This document shows positions 1,673-41,834 of a stretch of DNA of 41,834 nt, piece by piece (the stretch's first letter is position 1; every line of letters begins with the position of its first letter). This DNA is from Chrysochromulina tobinii. Taxonomy: Eukaryota. The stretch is from assembly GCA_001275005.1 (NCBI GenBank), contig JWZX01003115.1:1-41834 (forward strand). Direction: 5' to 3'. The position numbers were made by a program, and so were the translations under genes. Below the pieces are notes generated by a model. The model saw nothing but the letters and a program-made list of their open reading frames with translations. It was not told the origin of the DNA and searched no databases.

Positions 1673-4600
1673 ATGGCGACTCCATACCCCTCGTTACGCG
1701 TTACAGACCGCATCCTCTATTTCCTCTTGGCGATCGGCTTTTTTGGCATCACGAACGCGCAGCTCTGCGCGGAGACGTGCTACGAGTACGCCTCAGACGG
1801 TGTATGCGACGATGGCGGACCCGGAGCTGAGGACGCAAGCTGTGCGCATGGCACTGACTGCACCGATTGCGGCCCCCGAGAGCATCTTCCGCCACCGTTC
1901 TCGCCGCCCTTGCCGCCAGTACAGCCTCCAAAACCAGCGCAGCCTGGGTGGCACATCGAGCGCCACGGCCGCAGGCGTTACCCTCCCCCACGGGACTATG
2001 CGCAGGAGCTCCAGCCGGGCGGCCACCCGCAGGCGTTCGCACCCCCCAACTGCTTGGCACCAGGGCGGGTGGGCTGCCTCGCGATGCCGAAGCCGGCCCG
2101 TGCCAAGCCTGCAGCAGGCGTTCGAGCTGCGCTCTTGCCACCGGCTTGCTTCGTGTCCTCCGAGCCAGGGTGCCTGCGCCTCCCCAAGCCTTTGGCAAGG
2201 ACGGGGAACGAGCCGCTGGATAGTGGCGAGCCTGTACTTCGATTCAGAATGGATCGCACCGCAGCGCTGCTGAGCGGGCGGGCAACGCTGCCGCCCGGCG
2301 GCAGCGAGTTCACGAGCTCGATCGCGGCGGCGGACGTGGACGGCGACGGCGACCTCGACGTGCTGCTGGGGAACTATGGTAGTCCCAGCCTGGTGCTGCT
2401 CAACGCGGGCGACGGCACCTTCCCGACGAGCATCGAGCTGCCCGGCGGCAGCGCGTCCACGAACTCGATCGCGGCGGCAGACATGGACGGCGACGGCGAC
2501 CTCGATGTACTGCTTGGGAACTATGGTAGTCCCAGCCTGGTGCTGCTCAACGCGGGCGACGGCACCTTCCTGACGAGCATCGAGCTGCCCGGCGGCAGCT
2601 CGGACACGAGCTCAATCGCAGCTGCGGACGTGGACGGCGACGGTGACCTCGACGTGCTGCTTGGGAACTATGGTAGTCCCAGCCTAGTGCTGCTCAACGC
2701 GGGCGACGGCACCTTGCTGATGAGCATCGAGCTGCCCGGCGGCAGCGCGTCCACGAACTCGATCGCGGCGGCGGACGTGGACGGCGACGGCGACCTCGAC
2801 GTGCTGCTTGGGATCAATGCCAGTCCCAGCCTAGTGCTGCTCAACGTGGGCGACGGCACCTTCCTGACGAGCATCGAGCTGCCCGGCGGCAGCTCGGACA
2901 CGAGCTCAATCGCAGCGGCAGACGTGGACGGCGACGGCGACCTCGACGTGCTGGTTGGGAACAATGACAGACCCAGCGTTGTGCTTCTCAACGCGGGCGA
3001 CGGTACCTTCCCGACGAGCATCACGCTGCCCGGCCGCAGCTTCGGCACGAGCTCGATCGCGGCGGCGGACGTGGACGGCGACGGTGACCTCGACGTGCTG
3101 CTTGGGAAATATCTTGGCGGTTCCAGCCTAGTGCTGCTCAACGCGGGCGACGGCACCTTCCCGACGAGCATCGAGCTGCCCGGCAGCAGCGCGGGGGGCA
3201 CGAAGTCGATCGCGGCGGCGGACGCGGACGGCGACGGCGACCTCGACGTGCTGCTTGGGATCGATAGCGGCGGTCCCAGCCGACTGCTCCTCAACCTGGT
3301 CAACGTGGGCGACGGCACCTTCCCGACGAGCATCGCGCTGCCCGGCAGCAGCGCGGGGCACACGAGCTCGATCGCGGCGGCGGACGTGGACGGCGACGGC
3401 GACCTCGACGTGCTGCTTGGGAACTATGGTAGTCCCAGCCTAGTGCTGCTCAACGCGGGCGACGGCACCTTCCTGATGAGCATTGAGCTGCCTGGCGGCA
3501 GCGCGAACACGTACTCGATCGCGGCGGCAGACGTGGACGGCGACGGCGACCTCGACGTGCTGGTTGGGAACTGGGGTAGTCTCAGCCACGTCCTGCTCAA
3601 CGCGGGTGACGGCACCTTTCCGACGAGCGTCGAGCTGCCCGGCGGCAGCGAGTACGGGAGCTCAATCGCGGCGGCGGACGTGGACGGCGACGGTGACCTC
3701 GACGTGCTGCTTGTGAACTATGACAGTCCCAGCCTAGTGCTGCTCAACGCGGGCGACGGCACCTTCCTGACGAGCATCGAGCTGCCCGGCGTCAGCACAT
3801 CCACGAACTCGGTCGCGGCGGCGGACATGGACGGCGACGGCGACCTCGACGTGCTGCTTGGGAACTATGGTAGTCCCAGCCTAGTGCTGCTCAACGCGGG
3901 CGACGGCACCTTGCTGATGAGCTCTGCGCTGCCCGGCGGCAGCTCGGACACGAGCTCAATCGCAGCGGCGGACGTGGACGGCGACGGCGACCTCGACGTG
4001 CTGCTTGGGAACTATGGCAGTCCCAGCCTAGTGCTGCTCAACGCGGGCGACGGCACCTTCCTGACGAGCATCGCGCTGTCCGGCGGCCGCTCAGGCACGA
4101 GCTCGATTACGTACACGAACTCGATCGCGGCGGCGGACGTGGACGGCGACGGCGACCTCGACGTGCTGCTTGGGAACTATGGTAGTCCCAGCCTAGTGCT
4201 GCTCAACGCGGGCGACGGCACCTTCCCGACGAGCATCGAGCTTGGCGGCAGCGCGAACACGTACTCGATCGCGGCGGCGGACGCGGACGGCGACGGCGAC
4301 CTCGATGTGCTGCTTGGGAACTCGGGCGGTCCCAGTTATCTTCTGCCCTTCATCAGATGCTCTCAGCCTGGCACTGCACGCAGTCGCTTCGGCAACGGAT
4401 GCATCCGCTGCCCCGCTCCCTCTTCACGCCGCGACGACCATTTTGATATCTGCTACGAGTGCGAAGAGCACACGGAGCTCGACTACCGCGGCGAATGCTC
4501 CTCCTGCAAGCCCGGCAGCGATCGCTCCGTGGGAGCCACGGAGTGCACCGCCTGCCCGCGCGGCAAGCGCCAAGGTAAGGCTGGCACCTTCTGTGTCGAC

Positions 4601-6451: not shown

Positions 6452-6494
6452 TCAGTTCAGTTCAGTTCAGTTCAACTGATCTGAACTGAACTGA
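6452..6494. repeat. Inverted (TTCAG)n/(CTGAA)n microsatellite palindrome
   Basis: TCAGTTCAGTTCAGTTCAGTT-C-AACTGATCTGAACTGAACTGA; arms pair at 20 of 21 positions; CTC on both flanks. Confidence 0.85.
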
Positions 6495-19359: not shown

Positions 19360-21415
19360 TCAGCGAGTCGTCGGTTTGGCAGCGTCCCGCGACTGAGCAT
19401 CTACCTCAACCACGTTGTCTTCAGGCAGCTCGCACGCCTCCGCCAGTGCCTCTAGGCGCTTCTGCTCCTGCGCTTCAACAAAGGTCGCCAGGACGAACTC
19501 GGCGACGGTCGCGGCGGCGAGCGTTGGAAGGAAGATGGAGGGATTCTCTTGCGTGAGCTCGAGTAGGAGCACGGAGGCAGTCAGCGGGCTGCGGAAGAGC
19601 GCCCCGAGTGTGGCCGCCGCTCCCACGATCGCATACGCCGGGGCGGCGGCAACGTGGAGGATGGGCAGCACCCCCCACGAGCCAGGGACCACATCGAGGG
19701 AGAGCTGAAGCGACACGAGGTTGGTGGCTGCAAACTCCGTCGCGCTCGCCACGAGGGAGTGGAAGGCCGCGCCGGCAGTGGCGCCGATGAAGAGAGAGGG
19801 AGCAAAGAGGCCACCGACGAGACCAGCCCCGAGCGAGAAGGCAGTCGTCCCTATCTTGAGGAAGGAGTAGCCGAGGAGTGAGAGGGGCGGCTCGGGCTGC
19901 GTGTTGGCGAGGATGGCATTGAGTGTGGCGTAGCCGTTGAACAGGATGCGCGGGAACGCGATGCCAATGCTGCCGACGACCGCCGCGGCAGCCATCGGCC
20001 GGAGGAGAAGCGGCACACTCGAGCCGATTGCGCCCTCATCGGACCACACAGACAGAGAGGTTGTGCGAGCTTCGCGCACCTGACGAGGGAGGTAATCATC
20101 AGTCATCATCAGTCATCATCGGTCATCATCAGTCATCATCGGTCATCATCAGTCATCATCAACGCGCACAAGGATCGCGAGAGCGCCCGCGAGCACGCCG
20201 AGGCCGAGGTAGAAGGGCATCTCGAGCAGCGGCGACTCGAGCGTGAACTCGGGCGACTGCAGTCGAAGGGAGCCCTGGAGGATAGCCTCACTCACCAGAG
20301 CGGCACATGACGCCGAGAGCGCGACGGCGGCTACGCGGAGAGTGACGCGGGCGGGCGAGGCCTGCCACATCCGCGCGCGGCGCAGAGAGATCCGTTGGGC
20401 GGACATCTCGCTCGTCTTCATCTCGTTGAGAGCCTGCGCGTACGCAAGCCTCATCTCCGTCTCCGCCTCCTTCTCTCGCGCCCTTCCACCTTCCGTGGCC
20501 GCAATACCGTCCAGCTGGCTCCGGACCTCAGCTGCGTTGTTGTCCGTTCCCGTCGAGAGCAGAGCAGAATCATCGCACAAGGCTTCGACAGTCACATCTG
20601 GATTGAAAAAGGGCTCGATGGTCGAAGCATACGCATCGCCATACTCGGTGAATCTCTCCTGAATCGGTAGCCGCGTCCTTCCTTTGGGCTCCGGCGGGCG
20701 CAGTGCCCTGGTAGCCCGTGCCCACCCACGTGAGATCAGGGGCCGGAGCTGTAGCGCAGGCCGGCCACCTTCTGGCGCCACGGTCTCGCAGGCGAAGACG
20801 ATGCCGGCAATAGGAGCGGAGAAGCCGGCGGCGACACCGGAAGCCACGCCCGCCGCTACAAGGATCGTATCTCGCTCCTCGCAAAGACCGCCGAAGATCC
20901 GGGCAGCAATGCCTCGCCCGATGTCCACCGCGGGGCCCTCCGGCCCGAGGCTGTTGCCCGTGCCGAGTGTAGCTGCTGCTGCGGATGCCCGAGCGACGCC
21001 GCGTCTGCTCCAGTCGAACAGAGATTCATCCGGCTTTGGCGGCTTGTCAAAGCCTGGGGTGCCTACTCTCAGCACACCGACGGCCAAGCCACCGAGCATT
21101 GGCGTCGCTACCGAAATGACCTCTGGTGGCAGAGCCTGAATCCAGAACGCGTTCGGATTCAATACGATGGGTTCAATGCCCTCGATGCCAAGTTTGAGGC
21201 ACGCGACGCCGACCCCAGTCAAACAACCCAACGCTACCGCCCGAGGCAGCAGAGTGGATGCAAATTGTGGTAGTGGAGTTGGGAATGCCGGTACTGGAGG
21301 AGTATCTTGGGCCATGCGTGCAGGTGCGATGCGCACCTGAGGCACGGCTGCGGCAAAGGTGTGATAGCCATTGGCAGCCGGCACGGAGGAACACGAGCAG
21401 CCACCGATCAAGCAT
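19360..21415 (-). CDS. CLC chloride channel/transporter family protein, probably plastid-targeted; two exons (21415-20170, 20079-19360)
   Basis: Motifs GNSLGPEGPAV, AAGVASGVAAGFSAPIAG, GGLFAPSLFIGA, RSPLTASVLLLELT. The two ORFs join in frame across a 90-nt GT-AG intron. The ATG at 21415 is 1 nt out of frame with the body; the next in-frame ATG is at 21315. Confidence 0.85.
20080..20169 (-). mobile_element. 90-nt phase-0 spliceosomal intron, candidate introner copy 1
   Basis: Gene-sense: GTGCGCG-TT-(GATGATGACY)x6-GATGATTACCTCCCTCGTCAG | GTGCGCG. It contains an in-frame stop; removal gives GALAIL-VREART. The intron call is strong; mobility is inferred. Confidence 0.8.
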
Positions 21416-22621: not shown

Positions 22622-24484
22622 CTACCCGCGTTTCGGATGGCGCGCGCGGAATTCGTCCCTGATGTTGAAGTTCGCCTTGGTTTCGCCACGGTCCGCGCGC
22701 TCTTTCGCAGCCAGGAGGAGCCTATCCTCATTGGCCTGGGCCTCGTGGTCGAGCAGATCGCCTGTCTCTTGCGAGCGGCCTACGCCCAGCAGCACGCGCC
22801 CCTTGCGGCGCAGGTGCTCGCGCACGACGACCTTTTTGGCGCGGGGTGCCACGTCGGCGGTCGGATCAACCTGGATGACGGTTCCCTCGACGACCTTGAT
22901 GGCGAGCGCAATCGAGGCGAAGGTGCAGTCCATCTTGACGCGGTGCTCGCACGCGGCCTCGCATATGATCGAGATGAAATCTCCGATCTGGTCGAAAAAG
23001 GTGGGCGAATCTCGCGCGAGCTCGACCATCGTCTGGATCTTGGCGCAGAAGCCATCGAGGTCCCGCAGCTCGCTGGGCGCAGGGGAGCGCTCTGCCATCA
23101 TCCGGGCGGCGCGAGCGCCGTCGTACTGAATGAAGGAGAGCAGCACGTTGAAGAGTGTCTCGTGATCCGCGACCGGGTAGCGCACGGCGATGCCCGCATC
23201 GAGGAAGGTGAGTTGCACGTCGGTCGGGTCGCCTGTCGGTCCTTCGGCAACGAAGATGTTGCCCGGGTGCAGATCGCCATGCACGAAATTGTCGAGAAAG
23301 ATCATCTGGAGGACTGCATCGATGCCATCGGCGCAGACGCGCCGACCCTCAGGGGAGCCACGTGGCAGCTCCGCCGCCCATTCGAGAAAGGGGCGTCCAT
23401 GCACAAAACTCTCGACGAGCACCTCGCGCGACACGAAGGGTGCCATCGGCTCGGGGAAGGCCACTAGCGGGCATGGCTTCCCGTGGCGTGCATGCTCCGC
23501 CGAAGGGGGGAAGGCCGCGCGGAAGCGCTCGAGGTTGGACGCCTCGACGCGCAGATCGAGCTGCTCGGTCAGCATGGACGCGAACTCACGCAGCATCGCC
23601 TCCGGGTTCAGCCATCGAAGCGACGTCAGCATGAGGAGCTGCGCGACGCCCTCAAGCAACCATATGTCGACCGCCATGTGCGCAGCCATATGCGGGTGGA
23701 GCACCTTGATGGCTACCGGCCTCCACGTGCCCTCCTCAGGCGTGACCACCAAATCCAGCGCGCCACTCTCGCCGCCGCTGCCACTGTTGCCGGCGCCGGC
23801 GCCGGCGCCGCTGCTGCTGCCGCTGTTCGCCTGCCGCAAGAGACCGCGGTAGACCTGGGCGATGCAACCGGATCCGATCGGCGTGCGCTCGATGTGCAGA
23901 TCGCGCCGCCACTCGGGTCCAAACATGGCGTCGAGCGAGAACTCCGTTTGTTCCCACGGGTGCTCAGGCGTGTTGTCTTGCAGGTGCTTGAAGCGTCGGC
24001 AGACCGAGGCGCCAAACATGTCTGGTCGCGAAGAGCCCCATTGCGCCAGCTTGATGAGGAGCGCACCCGAGCGCTCGAAGCTACGCACGCACCACCGCCA
24101 CCAAAACTCCTCTGCCCACGTCCAGCGACACAATGGATACAGCAACAGCAGGGGTCCAAAGAACACGATCAGAAACAGGGCGCGCCGCACGCAAGCGAGC
24201 ACCAGCAGGGTCTTACTGCGAGGCGACGTAAGAATCTTCGTCACTATGACTGGTTCCGCCGCCGCCGGCGACGCCTCGCACACTGCTTGTGGCAGGCGTG
24301 GCCACAGGTGGGAGTGCACAATCAGCCCAGCGCTTAGTGCAGATGCGGTGAGGCATGCTGGCCGCATGGTTGCACGTGTTGCGATGGCGAGTTCCAAGTT
24401 ACGCAGCGGTTCAGCTCGTAGGCAGTAGGCACGCACACTGACGCGCGCTCTCGCCCTCAGAGGAAACATCGTGCGACGCAGCAT
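22622..24484 (-). CDS. ABC1/UbiB atypical kinase (ADCK2-like), probably mitochondrial
   Basis: IKLAQWGSSRPD, IGSGCIAQVY, VAIKVLHP, FVHGDLHPGNI, LDAGI. Arg-rich presequence-like start MLRRTMFPLR at 24484; the ORF is open to 24757. Confidence 0.88.
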   Translation of the reverse strand: MLRRTMFPLRARARVSVRAYCLRAEPLRNLELAIATRATMRPACLTASALSAGLIVHSHLWPRLPQAVCEASPAAAEPVIVTKILTSPRSKTLLVLACVRRALFLIVFFGPLLLLYPLCRWTWAEEFWWRWCVRSFERSGALLIKLAQWGSSRPDMFGASVCRRFKHLQDNTPEHPWEQTEFSLDAMFGPEWRRDLHIERTPIGSGCIAQVYRGLLRQANSGSSSGAGAGAGNSGSGGESGALDLVVTPEEGTWRPVAIKVLHPHMAAHMAVDIWLLEGVAQLLMLTSLRWLNPEAMLREFASMLTEQLDLRVEASNLERFRAAFPPSAEHARHGKPCPLVAFPEPMAPFVSREVLVESFVHGRPFLEWAAELPRGSPEGRRVCADGIDAVLQMIFLDNFVHGDLHPGNIFVAEGPTGDPTDVQLTFLDAGIAVRYPVADHETLFNVLLSFIQYDGARAARMMAERSPAPSELRDLDGFCAKIQTMVELARDSPTFFDQIGDFISIICEAACEHRVKMDCTFASIALAIKVVEGTVIQVDPTADVAPRAKKVVVREHLRRKGRVLLGVGRSQETGDLLDHEAQANEDRLLLAAKERADRGETKANFNIRDEFRARHPKRG

Positions 24485-24876: not shown

Positions 24877-27053
24877 CTACTGCGGCGGCGCGCCACTGCC
24901 ATACCAGTTCCACACGCATATGCACGCGTCCTTGCCGACGGAGACAACTTGTTTCCCGTCGGGCGCCCACTTGGCCATGGTGACTTCGTCGGAGTGCGCG
25001 GCGCCGATCGAGAGGAGCGCGGACGTGCGCAGGTCCCACACCTGCACTTCACCCGAGGCGGTGCATGCAAGCAGGAAGTCTGACGAAGAGCCGTCCATAG
25101 GTGGCGAGAGGTCGATGTGGGTGAGGCGACGGTCCTTGTTGGGATCCTGCTGAGGAGACCACGTGAGCATCATGGAGACTGGTTGCTCCTCGTCGGTGTC
25201 CCAAAATTTGAGCGCGCCCGACGTATCCGCCGTGATGAGCTCGTACTCGCCCCGATCCATCTGCACCATCGACTGCATCGCACCCTCCTTGACGGTGAAG
25301 CACTTGACCCTCCGTGCTTGGTCGAGGTCGATCGACACGATCTTCTTGTCCTCGCCACAAGAGTGGATGACCTTGGAGCGCGCATACGGGTTGCAGTCGA
25401 CGCAGAGCGACGTGATACGCTTCGAGTGCTCGTCAAAGTTGCCGTGCAGCTGGCGAGACGGCCCGTCGCCCCACACGCGCACTGCTCCGTCCCGGCCGCC
25501 GCTGACGATGTAGAGAGCGCAGCGCACCTGATGAGGGAGGCAATTAGGTGTCATCAGGTGTCATCAGGTGTCATCAGGTGTCATCAGAGGTCATCACAGG
25601 TGACGAGGTAGAGAGCGCAGCGCACGATGCAAGAGACGCCCCCGCGGTGCGCCTTGACGATTTCCCACAGCGGCGCGCCGGTGCGCGCGTCGTAGCAGCG
25701 CACGTTGCCGTCGCTCCAGCCCGAGAGGCACTCGAGCGTGTCCTTGTCGATGGAGAGGCATTCGGCGCGCACGACCGCGTACGCATCCGTCGTCTTGACG
25801 GGTGGAGGTGTCTCAAACTCGACTCCATAGTGAGAGAGCTCCCACCGCCGCAGATGGCCAGATTCGGCGGAGCTGATGAACCACTCGGAGCTGCCGCCGA
25901 AGCTGATGCAGTTAATCGGCTGCGGGTGCGACGCGAGCAGCGGCTCGTAGCGCGCCGCATAGTTGCCGTCCGGTCCCAACGGTCGCAAATCGCGCGCGTC
26001 GAGCAGGTAGATGTTCCCCAAGCTCGTGCCCGCGAGAACCTGACGCCCGTCGGCCGAGACGGTCACGGAGCGCACCTCCCCGTCGAGCTGTGCGTCGGCG
26101 AGGCAGGTCCACTGCAAGTCCTCGCCCTGGAGCAGCTTGAGGGTGCCGTCGCCCATGCCGCAGTAGGCGAGGGGCGCGGTGGCGCTCCCCTCGCCAAAAG
26201 GGTCGCCCGCATCACGCACCGCGAGCGACAGCAGCCCGCCCTTGGAGACGGGTACGCACGCACGGAAGACCATGGCGGCCGCGTTGAAGACGCACAGCTC
26301 GCCCGCGCTTGAGCCGCACACGAGGAACCATGTGCCGCTCGCGTTGCACACGGCTGTCGCGCAGTGGTACTCGCGCGCCAGCCCCGAGGAAGGCAACTGG
26401 AAGAGAGACTGCTTGATGTTGAACTGCATGGTGTGCACGTCAAACTCCATGAGGTACTTGATGACCTTGCTGTTCGCAGCCGTCTGAAGCTGGTACGCCG
26501 CGTGCTTCTGCGTCTTGCTGCGCGACGGGATCACCTCGCCCCACGCGAGGAAGTTGAGCTGCCGCTGCTGCGTCTTGGAGAGCACTGCGAGCTGACCCGT
26601 GTTCGTATGCCACACGCACAGCTTGGCGCCGCCGGGCTGGTCATCGCTGCCCGCGAGGAACAGGTCATCGGGCGAGAAGGCGAGCACGCGCACGCGGTTG
26701 CGCGAGAAGGCGATGCCGTCGTGCAGCTCCATGAGCCGGTAGAGCGGCTGCCTCGATGCGTAGTCCCACACGATCACCATCGCCTCCGAGTTGGGTACGC
26801 GCGTGGTCGACGTCTGGCCCGAGGCGATCAGCGCGCCTGATGGCGAGATGGCCATGCACGTGATCGCCTCGTTGTGCCCGCGCAGGAACTCCTGCTGGTG
26901 AGGGTCCTTGACGTCCGAGATGACAATCAAACAACCGGTGAACGAGATCATGACCGACGCGTCCGTCGGGTGGTACTGGACCGAGCCGCCGCACGAGCCG
27001 TCGAAGCCCATCATGTGCTCCAGCTCGAGCGGGTCGAGCTGTTGCTCCTCCAT
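24877..27053 (-). CDS. CFAP52: CFAP52/WDR16-like WD40 axonemal protein; two exons (27053-25626, 25527-24877)
   Basis: N-terminus LELEHMMGFDG...QQEFLRGHNEAITCMAISPSGALIASGQ, GWSDGNVRCYD, IVSGGRDGAVRVW, and C-terminus HSDEVTMAKWAPDGKQVVSVGKDACICVW. Exons join in frame across a 98-nt intron. Could be a paralogue rather than the orthologue. Confidence 0.72.
25528..25625 (-). mobile_element. 98-nt phase-0 spliceosomal intron, candidate introner copy 2
   Basis: Gene-sense: a 25-nt copy of the next exon's start (24/25 identical), then a 10-nt array (TCATCAGGTG x3 plus variants on the + strand), then AATTGCCTCCCTCATCAG. Removal gives GVSCI-VRCALYIVSGG. Confidence 0.82.
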
Positions 27054-28156: not shown

Positions 28157-28266
28157 GGATTCGACTCACCTCACACCTGTGTAGAAGTGTGAACAGACTG
28201 TTAAGCATAAAATTACAATGGCATGCCGACCCAGATCAACAAGAATGACCGATAGCGATCCGCAAA

Positions 28267-31200
28267 TTACGCCCTCAGCATGCGCGTGCGCGAGCGGGAG
28301 AGCGCCTTCTTGCAAAACGGGCACTTGAGTTCTATGGCTACCAGCCCGCTCGTCGACTCCACCAGCCTGCCATGGTCAGGATCGTCCGGGGTGAGCCAGC
28401 GCCCGAGGCAGTCAAAGTGTGCCGTCTGCCCGCAGCATGGGGTGTATCCCCACCCGCCGTCGGGCTCGGACGGGTCTGGTCGATCGCGCGCCGTGCCGAT
28501 CAAGGTCACTTCCCCGCCCAAGCAGCAGCCGAAGCAAGGACCCTCCTCCTCCGATTCCACTTCCATCTCCACCTCATCCAACTCGTCGTTGTTGCCAGCA
28601 TGCTCCACGTTGAAGCTGGAAGAAGCGCCTTGCATGTGAGCCGGTCGGCCGTCCAGCCACTGTCGCCTTTCATAGGGAAGGCCCGCCTCTGTGACGGAGG
28701 CTGACAGGGCCACAGCGAGCTGCATGCCCTCCTCGTCCTCGTACCAGTCCTCGGCCTCCTGTGGGCGCTTGCGGCTGCTGCCGCTCGAGCGCTGCGGCGT
28801 TGATGGGAGCATTGCAGGCGCTGGGCGCGCTGCTGGCGAGCAGGCTGCTTGCAGGCCAAAGTCCACGGCGAGCTGGCGGCGCATGTCCCGCCGCTGGACG
28901 CACTCGAGGTCGTCACACAGGTGCTCCGGCGCATTGTGGCTGCACTGGCCATGCGAGCTTGTGCGCATATGCGACTTGAGGCTTCCCGACCGCGAGAAGC
29001 GCTTGCCGCAGCCCTCGTGGTTGCAGGCGAACGGCCGCTCGCCCGTGTGCGTGCGCTTGTGCGCCGTGAGGTGGCCCGACCGCGAGAAGCGCTCGCTGCA
29101 GCCCTCGTGGTCGCAGGCATACGGGCGCTCGCCCGTGTGCGTGCGCTTGTGCCTCGTGAGGTTGTCCGACCGCGAGAAGCGCTCGCCGCAGCCCTCGTGG
29201 TCGCAGGTGTACGGCTGGTCGCCAGTGTGTGTGCGCTTGTGCGTCGTGAGGTGGCTCGACCGCGAGAAGCGCTTGCCGCAGCCCTCATGGTCACAGGCAA
29301 ACGGGCGGTCGTCTGTGTGCGTGCGTATATGCGTCGTGAGGTGGCTCGACTGCGTGAAGCGCTTGCCGCAGCCCTCGTAGTCGCAGGCAAACGGCCGCTC
29401 GCCCGTGTGCGAGCGTATGTGCGCCGTGAGGTGGCTCGGATCCGAGAAGCGCTTGCCGCAGCCGTCGTGATCGCAGGCGTACGGCTGGTCGCCCGAGAAG
29501 CGCTTACCCCAGCCCTCGTGCTCGCAGCTTGCTTGGGGTTCCCGCTCACCTTGCGCTGTCATCTGGAGCGCTGAAGCTGGGACAGTGACCTCGAGATCGG
29601 GTGATGGAACATGGGAAGGGTCTATATGCTGCGGCTCCGGCGCGGCATGGCTTGAGCTCGCACTAGAGCTCCCAGCACCACTCCCAGCCCCACTGCTCTT
29701 ATTGCCACGAGAGGAGGGTGGGCCGGGCGGGATCGAGTTGGGCGGAGACTCTGGACGCAAAGCCCCACCACCCCTAGGGTCAGTCCGCAGTTCAACCGCG
29801 TTAACGTTAACGCGGTGTTCGAGCAAGCACAGGTCGAGCTGGGCGCGTTCGCGCGAGACTCGGAAGTGATCGGCCAGGCGGCGATAGCGATGACAGACGC
29901 ATAGAAGAAGCAGAAATGACGTCAGAAATGCTGTCGCCAGGAATGGTATCAGAGGAGAGACTGGGGGCAGCCCTGGTGGCACTGGTGGCACTCGCGGCGG
30001 GAGCAGAGGCCGCGATGGAGGGGATGGAGGCGGCGGCATGAGACGAGCAGCAAAGCAAGCTCCTACGTCTCCACTTCTTTTGAGTGTGCTCGAGCCGAAC
30101 GATGCCTCGCTGGTGAAAGAGCCTGTTACAAGAGCACCGTCGACGCCATCTTGGGCGCCTGCGCCCACGTAGGCGATGCTCTTGCCAAAGTCACTCAGCT
30201 TGCCACCCCCCTGGATGGCCCAGTCGATGGTGCCCGATGCTGTCACGTGCATCACGAAAACGTCGGAACTGCCTCGGCTTGTGAGCAACGTCGAGCCGAA
30301 CGATGCCTTGCCGCTGAAAGTGCCCGTCACGAGAGCACCTCCGCTGCCGCGATTGTATGCGACGCCGGAGCCAAAAGAGTCGGCCGTGCCGCCCGCCTGG
30401 ACGGCCCAGTCGACGACGCCTGCCGCCGTCACGTGCATCACGAAAGCGTCGGCACTCGTGTCTCCGCTTGTGAGCACTGTCGAGCCAAACGATGCCTCGC
30501 CAAAAAAGTAGCCCGTCACAAGAGCACCGCCGCCGCCATCATTCGCGATGCTGCGTGCATACGTATAGTCCGTGCCGCCCGCCTGGACGGCCCAGTCGAT
30601 GGCGCCCGCCGCCGTCACGTGCATCACGAAAGCGTAGGGAAGGCCTCGGCTTGTGAGCACTGTCGAGCCGAACGATGCCTCGCCGCTAAAGGTGCCCGTC
30701 GCAAGGGCACCGCCGCCGCCATCATTCGCGATGCAGCGTGCATACGTTGAATCCATGCCGCCGGCCTGGACGACCCAGTCGATGGCGCCCGCCGCCGTCA
30801 CATGCATCACGAACGCGTCGTCACTGCCTCGGCTTATGAGCGACGTCGAGCCGAACGATGCCTCGCCACTAAAGGAGCCTGACACGAGAAAACCATCAAC
30901 GCCATCGTGGCCGCCCACGCGGGCGATGCTGTTGCCTGAGTCAAACAGCGCGCCACCCGCCTGGAAGGCCCAGTCGATGGCGCCCGATGCTGTCACGTGC
31001 ATCACGAAAACGTCGGAACTGCCTCGGCTTGTGAGCAACGTCGAGCCGAACGATGCCTTGCCGCTGAAGTCGCCCGTCACGAGAGCACCACCCGCGCCAT
31101 CGTATGCGACGCCGAAGCCCCAAGAGTCGGCTGTGCCGCCCGCCTGGACGGCCCAGTCGACGACGCCTGCTGCTGTCACGTGCATCACGAAAGCGTCGAC

Positions 31201-31407
31201 ACTCGTGTCTCCGTTTGTGAGCACTGTCGAGCCAAACGATGCCTCGCCATAGAAGTAGCCCGTCACAAGAGCACCGCCGCCGCCATCATTCGCGATGCCG
31301 CGGCCATACGTCGTGTCCTTGCCGCCCGCCTGGACGGCCCAGTCGATGGCGTGGTGCATGTCTGGGTGCGAACTTGGGAGCGGCGGGAGCTGGAAGGGGA
31401 GCTTCAT
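28267..31407 (-). CDS. Chimeric protein: 7-repeat beta-propeller, Pro linker, TM helix, six C2H2 zinc fingers, UIM-like motif, RING-like domain
   Basis: One uninterrupted 1046-aa ORF: seven DWAVQAGG-type repeats, TM LIPFLATAFLTSFLLLLCV, CxxxxC...H...H fingers with TGERP linkers, EEGMQLAVALSAS, and CFGC...CCGQTAHFDC...CPFC. Confidence 0.85.
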   Translation of the reverse strand: MKLPFQLPPLPSSHPDMHHAIDWAVQAGGKDTTYGRGIANDGGGGALVTGYFYGEASFGSTVLTNGDTSVDAFVMHVTAAGVVDWAVQAGGTADSWGFGVAYDGAGGALVTGDFSGKASFGSTLLTSRGSSDVFVMHVTASGAIDWAFQAGGALFDSGNSIARVGGHDGVDGFLVSGSFSGEASFGSTSLISRGSDDAFVMHVTAAGAIDWVVQAGGMDSTYARCIANDGGGGALATGTFSGEASFGSTVLTSRGLPYAFVMHVTAAGAIDWAVQAGGTDYTYARSIANDGGGGALVTGYFFGEASFGSTVLTSGDTSADAFVMHVTAAGVVDWAVQAGGTADSFGSGVAYNRGSGGALVTGTFSGKASFGSTLLTSRGSSDVFVMHVTASGTIDWAIQGGGKLSDFGKSIAYVGAGAQDGVDGALVTGSFTSEASFGSSTLKRSGDVGACFAARLMPPPPSPPSRPLLPPRVPPVPPGLPPVSPLIPFLATAFLTSFLLLLCVCHRYRRLADHFRVSRERAQLDLCLLEHRVNVNAVELRTDPRGGGALRPESPPNSIPPGPPSSRGNKSSGAGSGAGSSSASSSHAAPEPQHIDPSHVPSPDLEVTVPASALQMTAQGEREPQASCEHEGWGKRFSGDQPYACDHDGCGKRFSDPSHLTAHIRSHTGERPFACDYEGCGKRFTQSSHLTTHIRTHTDDRPFACDHEGCGKRFSRSSHLTTHKRTHTGDQPYTCDHEGCGERFSRSDNLTRHKRTHTGERPYACDHEGCSERFSRSGHLTAHKRTHTGERPFACNHEGCGKRFSRSGSLKSHMRTSSHGQCSHNAPEHLCDDLECVQRRDMRRQLAVDFGLQAACSPAARPAPAMLPSTPQRSSGSSRKRPQEAEDWYEDEEGMQLAVALSASVTEAGLPYERRQWLDGRPAHMQGASSSFNVEHAGNNDELDEVEMEVESEEEGPCFGCCLGGEVTLIGTARDRPDPSEPDGGWGYTPCCGQTAHFDCLGRWLTPDDPDHGRLVESTSGLVAIELKCPFCKKALSRSRTRMLRA
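28950..29490 (-). repeat. Coding array of six C2H2 fingers, 90-nt period
   Basis: Recurring GAAGCGCTTGCCGCAGCCCTCGTG-type units on the + strand at 90-nt spacing. Confidence 0.92.
30080..31350 (-). repeat. Coding array of seven ~61-aa beta-propeller-type repeats
   Basis: Repeated GCCTGGACGGCCCAGTCGA on the + strand. Units 1-3 are closely duplicated as units 5-7. Confidence 0.9.
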
Positions 31408-34000: not shown

Positions 34001-35000
34001 ATGTCCGACGACAACAAGGTTCTCGTTCTCCAGGCCACCGGCAAGGCCGGGCGCAACATCGCCCTCGCTCTGAAGAATGCTGGCTTCGAAGTGTTCGGCA
34101 CCACTCGCTCCGCCAAAAACAACCTCGCGTCGAAGGGCATCACGCCCGTCATCGCTAACTACACGGTACAGGCTGACATTGACCGCGCGATCAAGGAGTC
34201 CGGCGCGAAGAAGGTGATCGGCATCACTGACTTCTTTAAGGCCGCGAAGTCCAGGGGCGCGGTCGAGATCGCGCACGGCCAGGCGCAGTTCGAGGCCTGC
34301 AAGGCCGGCGGCGTCGCGCACTACATCTTCGTCTCTGTCGTGCAAGCCAGCGATATCGCGTGGCCGGCTGTCTGCAAGCACATCTCTACGAAGGCCGAGA
34401 TGGAGAAGAACCTGAAGGCGTCCGGCATTCCGCACTCCATCCTGCGCCCGTGCGTCTTCTTCGAGAACTTTGACGACGCAGCCAATTATAACCCGCTCAA
34501 GAAAGGCGCAGTGAAGTTCCTCTCCAAGTGCGTGACCCCAACCGGGGCTTACAAGTGGGTCTCCACATACGACGTGGGTCGCGCCGCCGCCGCGCACTTC
34601 AAAGACCCCGCCAAGTACCTCGGCACGACTCTCGAGTGCATGTCGTGGCAGGGCAGCCTCGATGACGTCGCACGCGCACTGCAGACGGTCTCCGGCGTGC
34701 CTGTGAAGGCCTCGCTCGCTATGCCCATCTGCCTGCGCAAATTGTTCCTGAAGGACCTCGATGGGATGTGCAACTTCTACGACGAGGATGGCCTGAAGGA
34801 CCACATTGCCGAGTTTAAGGCAGTCGTGCCGGACCCGCTGGATGCAGAGGGCTGGTTCCGGTTGGTACCTCCCTTACTTCTCTGACCTCCCTTACTTTCT
34901 TTCTGTACTCTCTTACTTCCTACTGTCTTACTTCGTACTGCCTACTTCCTACAGGTTCCACAACCGCTACGCCAACGGAAAGAAGATCGTCGACACGTAA
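34001..35000 (+). CDS. NmrA-like atypical SDR (Rossmann fold); two exons
   Basis: VLVLQATGKAG, HISTKAEME, SILRPCVFFENF, WVSTYDVGRAAA. A pyrimidine-rich intron ending TACAG at 34954 leads to terminal exon FHNRYANGKKIVDT*. Confidence 0.88.
34855..34954 (+). other. Short phase-2 spliceosomal intron built from degenerate CTTACTT repeats
   Basis: Sharp switch to C/T-rich repeats; acceptor CTACAG|G. Donors at 34855 (GTTCCG) and 34861 (GTTGGT) both preserve frame. Confidence 0.75.
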
Positions 35001-37788: not shown

Positions 37789-40008
37789 TCACGTCGTGTT
37801 GAAGCCGGCAAGGAACCCGTTCGACACCCACGGGAAGCCGATCGCGCCGTTGTGCACGCGCGGCTGGCGTAGCGGCGCGCGGAAGGGGTTGAGCTCAATC
37901 GGCACTGAGAGCTCGAGGCCGTGCGCTTGGGCACGGTGCACACCGCGCTCGATCGAGTACTCGGAGTAGTCCGTCAGGAAGAAGGGCGTGCGGCGCTGCT
38001 GCAGGTAGTCGAGTGATGGGGACCAAAGATACTCACGTGCGGCGAGGCCCGCGTTGAGCGCGATCGCAACGTCGGCCGGCGGCAGGTGGGGCGCGGCCTT
38101 ATGGTACCAGCCGCCACTGCCGCCATGGGCGCGCACCGTCACGCTCCCGCCGAGCCGTCCGTCGTACTTGACCGACTCGGGCAACGGCACATCGACCGGT
38201 CCGGCCATCTCGATGGTGATCGTCGTGCTGGGCATGAGCACCGCGAGCTCCTTGAAGAGAGGCAGCAGCCAGAGCTCCTTCTCCGGCCCAAGGTAGTGCA
38301 CGCTCAGTGGGCGTGCCGAGTCACGCATCCCAAGTTTCGTCAGCGCATGGTAGACGGTCAGTGGGAAGCTGAGCAACACGGCGAGCGGGGAGGCAGGCGA
38401 GAGGCTCCTCGAGGCATAATAGCTCGCCCAGTCAGTAGGGGGCGCCGTGAGCGTGGGCGCGCCGTCGAGGGCGTCCACGAGGTGGCGGTGCGGCGAGGGC
38501 GCGCTCGCGCAGCCGCAGAGTAGACGGTACGATTCCTCCTGGTGAACGCCAATCGCCTCGAGCACCTCGCAGTACGAGACCTCACACCGGTGATCCATCG
38601 AGGCACGCAGCCACGCAGGCTCTGTCGCGCCGAGGTGCACACGTACGTCGCGCTTCATGTAGCGTCCCATGTCGTCGCAAGTTGTCGAGGCTTGGTCATC
38701 GGCTGAAGTCCCCAAGTGCTTCAATGCATCTTGAGCCTGGCAAGCAGCTGAGCAGTAGCTGATGCATTCGCAGCGCCCGCAAACCATCGCGCTTGGGGTG
38801 GCCTTGCCGCACACGGCACAGCTGAGGAATCGCACTGTGCCCGCACCCTCGGCAGGGGAGACTAGCGGCGGAAGCGGCAATGGCGTGCTGCTGCCGGCGG
38901 TGGTGGCAGAGGGCGCTGTCTTGGACGCTGCCTCCGCGGAGGCGGCAGACGTCGGGCTGCTGCCACGGCTGCTGCGGCCGCGGCTGGTGGAGGAGCCCGT
39001 GTCACCCGTCGCGCCACCCATGCTGCCTGTGCCGCCCGTGCCGCCCGCGTCCTTCGCCCTCGCCTCACCTTCGCCCTCGCCTTCGCCTTCGCCTCGAGCC
39101 ACCGCCGCATCCTCCTCGAAGGCGCCTCGATGGAGCGCTTCAAAGACACGCGTCCGCACATCGTCCCAACGGCCGCGCGCTCGCACGGTCTCGTCGAGCA
39201 GCTCCGTCACCTCGAGCAGCGCGAGCTCGCGCGTGGTCCGCGGCGGCGCCCTCTGCTGCTTGCGCACCGCCTCCTCCTGGGCCCTCATCAGTGCACGCAC
39301 GTCAGGCACATGCGACAGCTGCGCCGCAGCGAGCACGTGCTCGAGAGGCGCGCCGAGAGTCCAAAAGGGGGGCTCGAGCGCCGCGAGCGCCATGTCGCGC
39401 CGCTCCTCGGGCCGCCGCACCCGCTCCAAGAGCTCCGCTTGCTGCCACAGGCAGCACGCCCATCCAGGGTTATTGGCAGTGCCTCGCTCCATGGCCACGA
39501 GTGCGGCGGTCTCGTCGCCGCGCTCGAGCTGGTAGCGCGCGAGCTGAGCCCACACGTCGGGAAACCCGGTGCCGGCCTTGAGCAGCAGGAATTGCGGCAG
39601 GCCCAGCTTGCTCTTGCCAAACTCGCCCGCCTCGTAAGCTTTGCCGCCCGCCTCAACGCAAGCGGCAGAGGCAGCCCGCACGAGCTCAGCGTCGCCACCA
39701 CTGGCGTCGGTCTCCACGGCCACGCGCCGCGCAAACTGAGCAATCGTACCCATCGGCTTCAAGGTGAGCGACGCAAGGTCCACGTCACGGTCGCTAGCTT
39801 GCGCGTGCGTCGACACCACCACCGCTGTACCCACTTTTCCAATCGGCCAGCGCAGCAGGCCGAGCACGCCACGCGACGCTTCCACAGAGCGTGCAAATGG
39901 TGCAACTAGCGGGTGCAGACCGCGCGTCGGCAGAGCGTCGGGCGTCGCATGCCCTTGCAGCTTGAGCATGGCTGCGAGTGCTGGGCGACTCGCCAAGATC
40001 CGACTCAT
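37789..40008 (-). CDS. PAB (chloroplast ATPase biogenesis)-like N-terminal domain, MYND zinc finger and MSS51-like C-terminal domain
   Basis: GLHPLVAP...LLRWP...FPDV...GDETAALV...PFWTLG resembles plant PAB from memory. CAVCGK...CGRCECISYCSAACQAQD is MYND. LSFPLT, VHYLGPEKEL, ALNAG, NPFR match the MSS51-type C-terminus. Start MSRILASR at 40008. Confidence 0.7.
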   Translation of the reverse strand: MSRILASRPALAAMLKLQGHATPDALPTRGLHPLVAPFARSVEASRGVLGLLRWPIGKVGTAVVVSTHAQASDRDVDLASLTLKPMGTIAQFARRVAVETDASGGDAELVRAASAACVEAGGKAYEAGEFGKSKLGLPQFLLLKAGTGFPDVWAQLARYQLERGDETAALVAMERGTANNPGWACCLWQQAELLERVRRPEERRDMALAALEPPFWTLGAPLEHVLAAAQLSHVPDVRALMRAQEEAVRKQQRAPPRTTRELALLEVTELLDETVRARGRWDDVRTRVFEALHRGAFEEDAAVARGEGEGEGEGEARAKDAGGTGGTGSMGGATGDTGSSTSRGRSSRGSSPTSAASAEAASKTAPSATTAGSSTPLPLPPLVSPAEGAGTVRFLSCAVCGKATPSAMVCGRCECISYCSAACQAQDALKHLGTSADDQASTTCDDMGRYMKRDVRVHLGATEPAWLRASMDHRCEVSYCEVLEAIGVHQEESYRLLCGCASAPSPHRHLVDALDGAPTLTAPPTDWASYYASRSLSPASPLAVLLSFPLTVYHALTKLGMRDSARPLSVHYLGPEKELWLLPLFKELAVLMPSTTITIEMAGPVDVPLPESVKYDGRLGGSVTVRAHGGSGGWYHKAAPHLPPADVAIALNAGLAAREYLWSPSLDYLQQRRTPFFLTDYSEYSIERGVHRAQAHGLELSVPIELNPFRAPLRQPRVHNGAIGFPWVSNGFLAGFNTT

Positions 40009-41216: not shown

Positions 41217-41740
41217 TCGCCGCGCTGAGCTTGCCATAGACTGAGAGGAGTGGACTCATAAGAAAACCTGAGAAGGTCAACGCGCAGCCACGCACGGAGC
41301 GAGAGCACACGGCATTCGGCGCACTCGCATGATTCACCGTGTTTTTATCCTCAGTAATTTTGGCTCCGGTTGCAGCCTGCACGTTGGTGCATCGCATACA
41401 CTAGCCGAGAGCTTGAAACTTGAGGTCAACGCAGCGGAGCGCAAAGCGGCGTAAGCGCGCAAAGAATCATGATACAGATACGCAACAGATACGCATGATG
41501 TGTACATGATATATTGACGAAGAGTATAGAGAGTTCAGCGCTCAAAATTGACACAATCGATCCAACCGCCATGACCCATGTGTGTGAGTCGTCACCAATA
41601 GGAAATGGATCACAGTGCAGAGGTGTAAGGGTCGAGCCGCAGCCTGATATGAACAGAGCGCTGGAACCAGAAACGCCGGAGCACGAAATCAATCAATGGT
41701 GAATGAATGCATGCCGCCCTGGCCAATTTTACTGCCATAA

Positions 41741-41834
41741 TCAGGTCCTCAGCATGCGCGTGCGCGAGCGGGAGAGCGCCTTCTTGCAAAATGGGCACTT
41801 GAGCTCGATGGCCACCAGCCCGCTCGTCGACTCC
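41741..41834 (-). CDS. 3' end of a gene running off the window; RING-like C-terminus paralogous to the 28267 gene
   Basis: Translates ESTSGLVAIELKCPFCKKALSRSRTRMLRT*; 84/88 nt identical to 28273-28360. Confidence 0.8.
   Translation of the reverse strand, partial: ESTSGLVAIELKCPFCKKALSRSRTRMLRT

Follow-up and report, generated by a model that had tools for sequence, protein, structure and literature searches.

The CLC gene of Chrysochromulina tobinii carries a spliced intron that belongs to a family of roughly a thousand copies and was apparently gained recently, and our leading explanation, to which we give a little less than even weight, is that it was made by templated repair of a staggered break, in which a family intron already present elsewhere served as template and its 3′ end was copied into a new gene. 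Splicing, the common end, the flanking duplication, presence or absence between close lineages and turnover of the array at one locus were observed directly. The window, that is, the whole stretch analysed, comprises 41,834 nt of eukaryotic DNA at 63% GC (contig JWZX01003115.1). The following features define the CLC gene and its intron:

20170 to 21415, minus strand: CLC exon 1 (Pfam PF00654, N-termini of homologues)
20169 to 20080, minus strand: CLC intron, 90 nt, GT-AG, phase 0, removal of which joins two Voltage_CLC halves
20163 to 20169, minus strand: 5′ copy of the duplicated exon start, identical at 7 of 7 positions to 20079 to 20073, supplying the GT donor
20097 to 20162, minus strand: 10-nt tandem array with units GATGATGACY (TRF period 10)
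20080 to 20096, minus strand: family 3′ end with the acceptor AG, matching the end of the WD40 intron
20056 to 20079, minus strand: start of CLC exon 2, the duplicated target, with a match of 7 nt in the window allele and 24 nt in long alleles
19360 to 20079, minus strand: CLC exon 2 (Pfam PF00654, E 1e-28)

PF00654 was matched on both sides of the intron. RNA contigs from runs X14 (record 9) and X15 (record 15) skip exactly 90 nt and the X16 contig breaks at the junction, so the CLC intron is a spliced spliceosomal intron, a GT-AG segment removed from RNA in two of three RNA runs. TRF placed the array at 20095-20161 (period 10, 6.7 copies, 92%), and the span of 20073-20169 given in the first-pass annotation corresponds to the intron plus the downstream 7-nt copy. 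In exon 1, one base at window position 21385 was absent in four of four runs; without it, the CLC frame continues to an ATG at 21415, in agreement with the N-terminus of related proteins, and the extra base is likely an assembly error.

Alleles of the CLC gene were compared as translated proteins. Prokaryote-style gene calls run into the intron, which makes its ends visible as peptide, and both the allele codons and the pairing of 5′ with 3′ halves are inferred from these translations. Among 35 listed proteins, 21 cover the intron site: 14 read VRADDD-stop, two read VRVDDD-stop (the window type), two read VREARTASDDD-stop and three are uninterrupted. In the long form (P0116 and P0126), eight exon codons (24 nt) are copied ahead of the same DDD-stop array start. 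At the level of reconstructed codons, one 15-nt deletion would turn this form into the VRADDD majority form and one transition would then yield the window form, and the 7-nt copy in the window is probably what erosion has left of a duplication of 24 nt. Protein distance to the intron-less lineage (14 and 18 versus 17 differences) does not polarise the long against the short duplication. Six listed downstream calls start in the intron or cover its end, and the five that are 249 residues long have a common array-derived head, which probably reflects a single insertion event. P0124 and P0140 read His where the window has Arg in the family 3′ end, which probably corresponds to one mismatch fewer to the WD40 end.

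Two of the uninterrupted proteins, P0117 and P0141 (95% identical), are single ORFs on contigs of 18.8 and 9.0 kb, lengths that point to DNA of a lineage without the CLC intron. P0127, which is also uninterrupted at the intron site, lies on 2.2 kb and is probably a transcript. The empty orthologous site in the sister lineage suggests that the CLC intron was recently gained, with loss in that lineage as the alternative.

A second member of the family interrupts the WD40 (CFAP52-like) gene of the window:

25625 to 25528, minus strand: WD40 gene intron, 98 nt, GT-AG, phase 0, removal of which restores the ORF
25599 to 25625, minus strand: 5′ duplicate of the exon start, matching at 24 of 25 nt
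25545 to 25600, minus strand: 10-nt tandem array, mostly CTGATGACAC, with a first unit of the family's common CCTCTGATGA type
25528 to 25544, minus strand: family 3′ end, with a summed DNA-contig depth about 1,000 times that of single-copy sequence

Splicing of this intron was seen in one of three RNA runs: the X14 contig (record 12) skips the 98 nt, and the X15 and X16 contigs break there. At the single position where the two duplicate copies differ, the WD40 RNA contig shows the exon base, as expected if the intron is cut at the first GT. By TRF, the array covers 25546-25596 (period 10, 5.1 copies, 95%). Alleles P0096 and P0109 have Thr at codon 9 of the exon, as in the L-V-T of the intron copy, and the relative P0003 has Leu-Val-Thr at this site; at the level of reconstructed codons, this suggests that the intron copy preserves an ancestral 27-nt duplication. 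The WD40 orthologues with 82% and 49% identity are single ORFs on contigs of 6.2 and 24 kb, and orthologous positions without the intron were found in outgroups for two of two family members tested. The 90% protein cluster of the WD40 gene includes a Chrysochromulina parva gene model (P0107), and the cluster of the EF-hand gene also has a C. parva model, which places the host at or very near C. parva. P0107 retains seven extra residues, which apparently come from the use of a later GT in the duplication as donor.

The first-pass annotation had placed the two introns in one family. This was borne out by 3′-terminal 17-mers that agree at 15 of 17 positions, a shared period of 10, a duplication flanking each intron and the thousand-fold depth, and the sequence features that it had described were all present (duplications of 7/7 and 24/25, exon starts in GTGCGC and phase 0 in both). 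With the terminal CAG fixed, the probability of at least 12 of 14 positions matching is 7e-6 at window composition and 2e-3 if a per-base match of 0.45, a generous value, is assumed. No further family end was found in the window at up to four mismatches except one array-less match with three mismatches at 20282. When one DNA run was mapped to 25498-25647, summed depth was 39,009-39,764 in the final 25 bases of the intron and 39-40 in the single-copy flanks, which suggests a family of about 1,000 copies at 85% likeness, to be read as an order of magnitude since depth is not a copy number. Some contigs that map to 25498-25647 have the family end and then another array within 6-40 bases, representing either tandem copies or assembly loops.

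Scans of metagenomes and genomes provided five further distinct introns in three genes, with ends 0-2 mismatches from the WD40 end. The DNA-level set thus comprises seven distinct introns, and the two window introns are the RNA-verified members. Removal of the five further introns restores open frames, with predicted phases of 1, 1, 2, 0 and 1, and their arrays are commonly built from units of the TGATGACCTC type and include 11-nt variants. The metagenome scan used a 7-base spacer (both window introns have 8) and for that reason returned only six loci: three near-duplicates of one gene fragment, two alleles of one gene and one other. The two alleles, L001 and L002, share 484 of 490 exon bases. 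Two of their arrays differ in size (666 versus 196 nt and 275 versus 215 nt) and in the dominant unit, and the third intron measures 128 nt in both. These allelic arrays, together with a WD40 read-through peptide that varies among alleles, uphold the earlier proposal that arrays were amplified locally, and place this amplification after insertion. The second intron of L001 has a duplication of about 12 nt whose exon copy differs at two synonymous positions alone; the other four introns have 2-4 nt, which may represent erosion or a different footprint.

The three near-duplicate loci (L003, L005 and L006) were considered as new insertions and rejected, as they represent a truncated copy of the L001 gene; around 1430-1600 of these loci, the gene copy begins inside the second intron array. 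A scan of prokaryote genomes gave one family match, L016, on a 1.4-kb haptophyte-like contig in a Gemmatimonas bin, which is likely bin contamination, and the other 14 matches correspond to the control rate. Four scans of a viral collection returned 0, 9, 2 and 0 matches, and these 11, which have no family structure, were taken as chance.

By two criteria, similar introns at unrelated loci and an empty orthologous site, this family is an introner family in the broad sense. Its members are not similar from end to end: likeness is confined to the last 17-30 nt or so, lengths range from 90 to 666 nt and units differ. At the far end of the insert, the family introns have a direct repeat of the local exon. 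The two window insertions likely began with similar long duplications, which removes the 7- versus 25-nt contrast that the first-pass annotation had treated as a feature of insertion; among the 18 listed intron-bearing CLC proteins, two read the 24-nt form.

Both window introns are followed by GTGCGC, which had been taken, together with phase 0, to indicate a target preference or selection for a ready-made donor. Relative to the depth of the family end, depth after CAG is 0.42 in positions +1 to +5 and 0.014 in the next five bases, values in which the aligner's end handling may matter. Exact-match models built from window ORFs give, for the same two intervals, 0.08 and 0.0004 with random flanks, 0.25 and 0.001 with G, 0.53 and 0.008 with GT, and 1.0 and 0.29 with GTGCGC. 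In most family copies, the base after CAG is G, generally as part of GT but not of GTGCGC. A GTGCGC or phase-0 target is therefore not sustained: depth beyond +5 is 0.014 versus the 0.29 predicted, none of the five other introns is followed by GTGCGC, and their phases vary. GTGCGC is the commonest GT hexamer in window ORFs (68 of 2419), two sites have the same hexamer about 1% of the time (a null based on 41 ORFs and 50.6 kb, shadow ORFs included), and the reservation attached to the earlier claim, that such exon starts might be no commoner than chance, largely applies. The actual constraint on insertion sites is G(T) after CAG.

GT occupies 4.8% of ORF positions in the window, and the C. tobin genome is about 40% coding DNA according to the accessible text of its description (PMC4580454). 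By our own arithmetic, GT-blind insertion followed by selection would lead to about 6% GT-flanked copies, unless copies in non-coding DNA are lost quickly, whereas the depth ratio implies roughly 75%. Selection alone thus seems too weak to account for the G(T) rule, which is probably built into the insertion step.

Inserts were also found at sites that are empty in the window:

20671 to 20694, minus strand: empty site in CLC exon 1; in P0115 and P0120 the 8 codons occur twice, on either side of an 11-codon filler of period 10, and the insert stays in frame and has no acceptor end
20530 to 20559, minus strand: empty site in CLC exon 1; in five alleles the 10 codons occur twice, on either side of an 11-codon filler, and the insert stays in frame
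23848 to 23857, minus strand: empty CAG/GT site (23854) in the ABC1 kinase gene, with an ORF break in a 94-95% identical lineage

The two inserts in CLC exon 1, 57 and 63 nt long, are in-frame duplications with filler and do not have the fixed family end. The 10-codon duplication and its filler are carried by P0116, P0122, P0123, P0126 and P0127, and are retained in the full-length P0127. P0121 also leaves the frame near the 20694-20671 site. For the filler of P0115 and P0120, there is exactly one period-10 DNA solution, and none of 1301 control windows of 12 residues admits a period of 7, 8, 10, 11, 13 or 14. The second filler fits period 10 over seven residues alone, a weaker result as eight-residue fits occur by chance. 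The reconstructed filler units are alike in opposite orientation and loosely like the intron units; they are sufficiently unlike the latter that the fillers may belong to another family. No further in-frame fillers were found in the protein clusters of the other five to six window genes (clusters were obtained for 6 of 10 window proteins, and one cluster mixed two genes).

At the ABC1 site, P0173, P0176 and P0178 end in VYH-stop, and P0174 and P0175 restart as MAPDCPAQ-VYR, on contigs of up to 26.6 kb. The insert in this related lineage has at least 7 nt duplicated and a tail that is family-like but shorter, and the site is apparently filled there by a family-like intron.

According to the repair model that we tentatively favour, a target site would be opened by two nicks, one in each strand, with a spacing of about 24-30 nt, and one broken end would anneal via G(T), sometimes CAG/GT, where a family intron meets its downstream exon, the template being either DNA or unspliced RNA. 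The annealed end would copy the acceptor and part of the array, rejoining would proceed by short homology between the array and the other end, and fill-in would leave the duplication, whose first GT would serve as donor and thereby leave the mRNA unchanged. Slippage would later homogenise and resize the array and erode the duplication, and priming elsewhere would generate the duplication-plus-filler inserts, which would survive in exons only if in frame. Several observations argue for this model: the long duplications of 24 codon-level nt in the long CLC alleles and 25-27 nt in WD40, the final bases of which also appear to fit the repeat unit, the use of CAG/GT as target at two sites (L016 and ABC1 23854), and the two CLC exon fillers, which point opposite ways and have no fixed end. 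Priming on a template that reads CAG/GT would always leave GT after the end and so would explain the G(T) rule, and the model also explains fillers in both orientations and short junction overlaps. A bolder version, possible though doubtful, is a transposon-free chain reaction in which staggered-break repair is templated on CAG/GT junctions and each new intron templates the next. Such a process would also leave unspliced in-frame inserts in exons, would still be segregating among lake and culture lineages, and would have been missed by introner screens as its arrays diverge fast.

A point against templated repair is that a variable duplication, a fixed 3′ end and a ragged 5′ end are also the classic footprint of retroposition, and the two explanations overlap if the repair polymerase copies pre-mRNA. 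SINE-like retroposition, which we consider less likely but which is the one other explanation left standing beside repair, would rely on target-primed reverse transcription by a non-LTR or Penelope-like reverse transcriptase. The template would be an RNA whose 3′ end lies at the acceptor or slightly beyond it, and the copies would be 5′-truncated with variable duplications; candidate RNAs are an element transcript, pre-mRNA or the excised intron. All three parts of this footprint are seen in the family, with duplications of 24-27 nt, about 12 nt and 2-7 nt (erosion blurs the old copies), and family sequence is present in RNA contigs (bin 25008-25674). Variable-length target-site duplications (TSDs) are described for LINEs and PLEs in the accessible part of PMC9977147, and an entry in supplement file 8 of PMC12130899, as far as that source is available, classes a Pavlovales introner as non-LTR with 'co-opt 5′, carry 3′'. 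However, the fixed end has no poly-A or other tail and the sense strand ends at CAG; if the insert is read antisense, the array would be the tail, but the fixed end would then be the 5′ end. In addition, the fixed end is missing from the in-frame CLC fillers, copying of an excised intron would place no G(T) constraint on the bases after CAG, and the model requires a reverse transcriptase partner.

It is improbable that the family derives from a cut-and-paste DNA-transposon introner (MITE) that was later overgrown by the minisatellite. The splice-site logic would be the same, with an element that carries the acceptor and a TSD that acts as donor (available text of 10.1101/2020.10.14.339549), and the last 7 nt of the 3′ end are complementary to the repeat unit and fold with one in the array (predicted RNA folding of -11.6 and -18.4 kcal/mol, values given no weight as evidence). 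This complementarity is not at a fixed 5′ terminus, and neither a pair of terminal inverted repeats (TIRs) nor a fixed TSD length was found across the seven distinct introns. Every known class has a single TSD length, which lies between 3 and 8 nt, and transposons with a fixed-length TSD are excluded here by the duplications of 24-27 nt and by 5′ ends that are not conserved, in introns of 90 to 666 nt.

We give very little credence to the proposal that these are old introns that share a 3′ end through gene conversion or acceptor consensus, with duplications that arose by local slippage. Arrays do turn over fast and several copies are almost without duplication, as this would predict, but the CLC site is uninterrupted on long contigs of a 95%-identical lineage, the WD40 orthologues are single ORFs, and the ABC1 site is empty in the window and broken in relatives. 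A generic acceptor, which the first-pass annotation had named as the explanation that would undo its family, also conflicts with the intron of the NmrA-like gene (34861-34954, plus strand), which ends differently. This intron is 94 nt long, GT-AG, with 7-nt pyrimidine-rich repeats, P0238 has the spliced C-terminus, and it possibly represents a second repeat-intron family. Least probable is a route in which excised introns are reverse-spliced into new transcripts, with subsequent reverse transcription and recombination. This fits the exact 3′ end at AG and the apparent concentration at GT-flanked, genic sites, but the inserted intron should then be complete, bring its own donor and have no long duplication; the route is excluded for the CLC and WD40 copies, whose donor region copies the local exon.

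Other repeats were seen in the window. Two similar copies of a repeated element lie at 28260-28480 and 41720-41834, and 28267-31407 contains zinc-finger-like repeats of 90 nt and 183 nt with high mixed depth. At 2293-4335, 147-nt coding repeats (12 copies) form part of an ORF of 1478 codons with a kinase-like region at its end, and a short inverted pair of 5-nt arrays (6452-6494) is upstream of the 6609-8477 gene.

The origin of new spliceosomal introns is an open question, for which the two main models are transposon-derived introners and double-strand-break repair. The family described here combines the copy number of introners with the footprint of repair or retroposition and, if the repair reading is true, would be a way to gain introns without a transposon. 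As filled and empty alleles exist at CLC and ABC1, and unspliced sibling inserts in CLC, mechanism and selection are separable by population sequencing of a culturable alga. The genome paper of Emiliania huxleyi by Read and colleagues in 2013 is said to report 10-11 bp repeats enriched in introns. The family also reveals a gap in detection: a screen that relies on similarity between introns scores zero families in C. tobinii, and the WD40 gene model of C. parva retains the seven extra residues noted above, apparently through use of the later GT. That 2025 introner screen lists 0 families for assembly GCA_001275005.1 in the accessible supplements of PMC12130899. No published description of this intron family was found in the literature searched, although supplements or repositories may hold one. 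The family motif is absent from the available content of the PMC9860276 supplement and of 12 of 14 PMC12130899 files, and the family is not described in the accessible portions of PMC4580454, PMC2784329, PMC4028052, PMC12480563 and PMC11282704.

MITE-type introners are known in Symbiodinium, Polarella and Aureococcus. As described in the available text of 10.1101/2020.10.14.339549, the introners of Symbiodinium and of Polarella classes 4/5 and 6/8/10 resemble the present family in that the acceptor is on the element, the donor comes from the duplicated target, the mRNA is unchanged, copies are many and phase is set by the target. Unlike these, with one TSD length of 3-8 nt per class and inverted repeats in the Symbiodinium elements, the C. 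tobinii family reaches 24-27 nt and has a fast-changing minisatellite body and no conserved 5′ end. Haptophyte introner families were compared by their published descriptions. Family 5 of a Chrysochromulina TARA MAG, with a 4-bp TSD, carries the donor and is the reverse arrangement (accessible part of 10.1101/2022.06.06.494994), whereas E. huxleyi fam24, listed with five copies, '10bp terminal direct repeats' and an unknown mechanism, and the non-LTR Pavlovales fam1 bring their own acceptor and co-opt a donor, as the present family does, according to the available entries of PMC12130899 supplement file 8. SINE and non-LTR retrocopies share the fixed 3′ end, 5′ truncation and variable TSD, but the present introns have no tail, no tRNA- or 7SL-like head was seen, and there is a strong requirement for G(T) after the end. 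The neo-introns of Daphnia pulex attributed to staggered breaks are comparable in their exon-derived direct repeats, population polymorphism and early length change; in the accessible text of PMC4202315, their repeats are 4-12 bp and they are not described as one sequence family, whereas in C. tobinii about 1,000 inserts have one common end.
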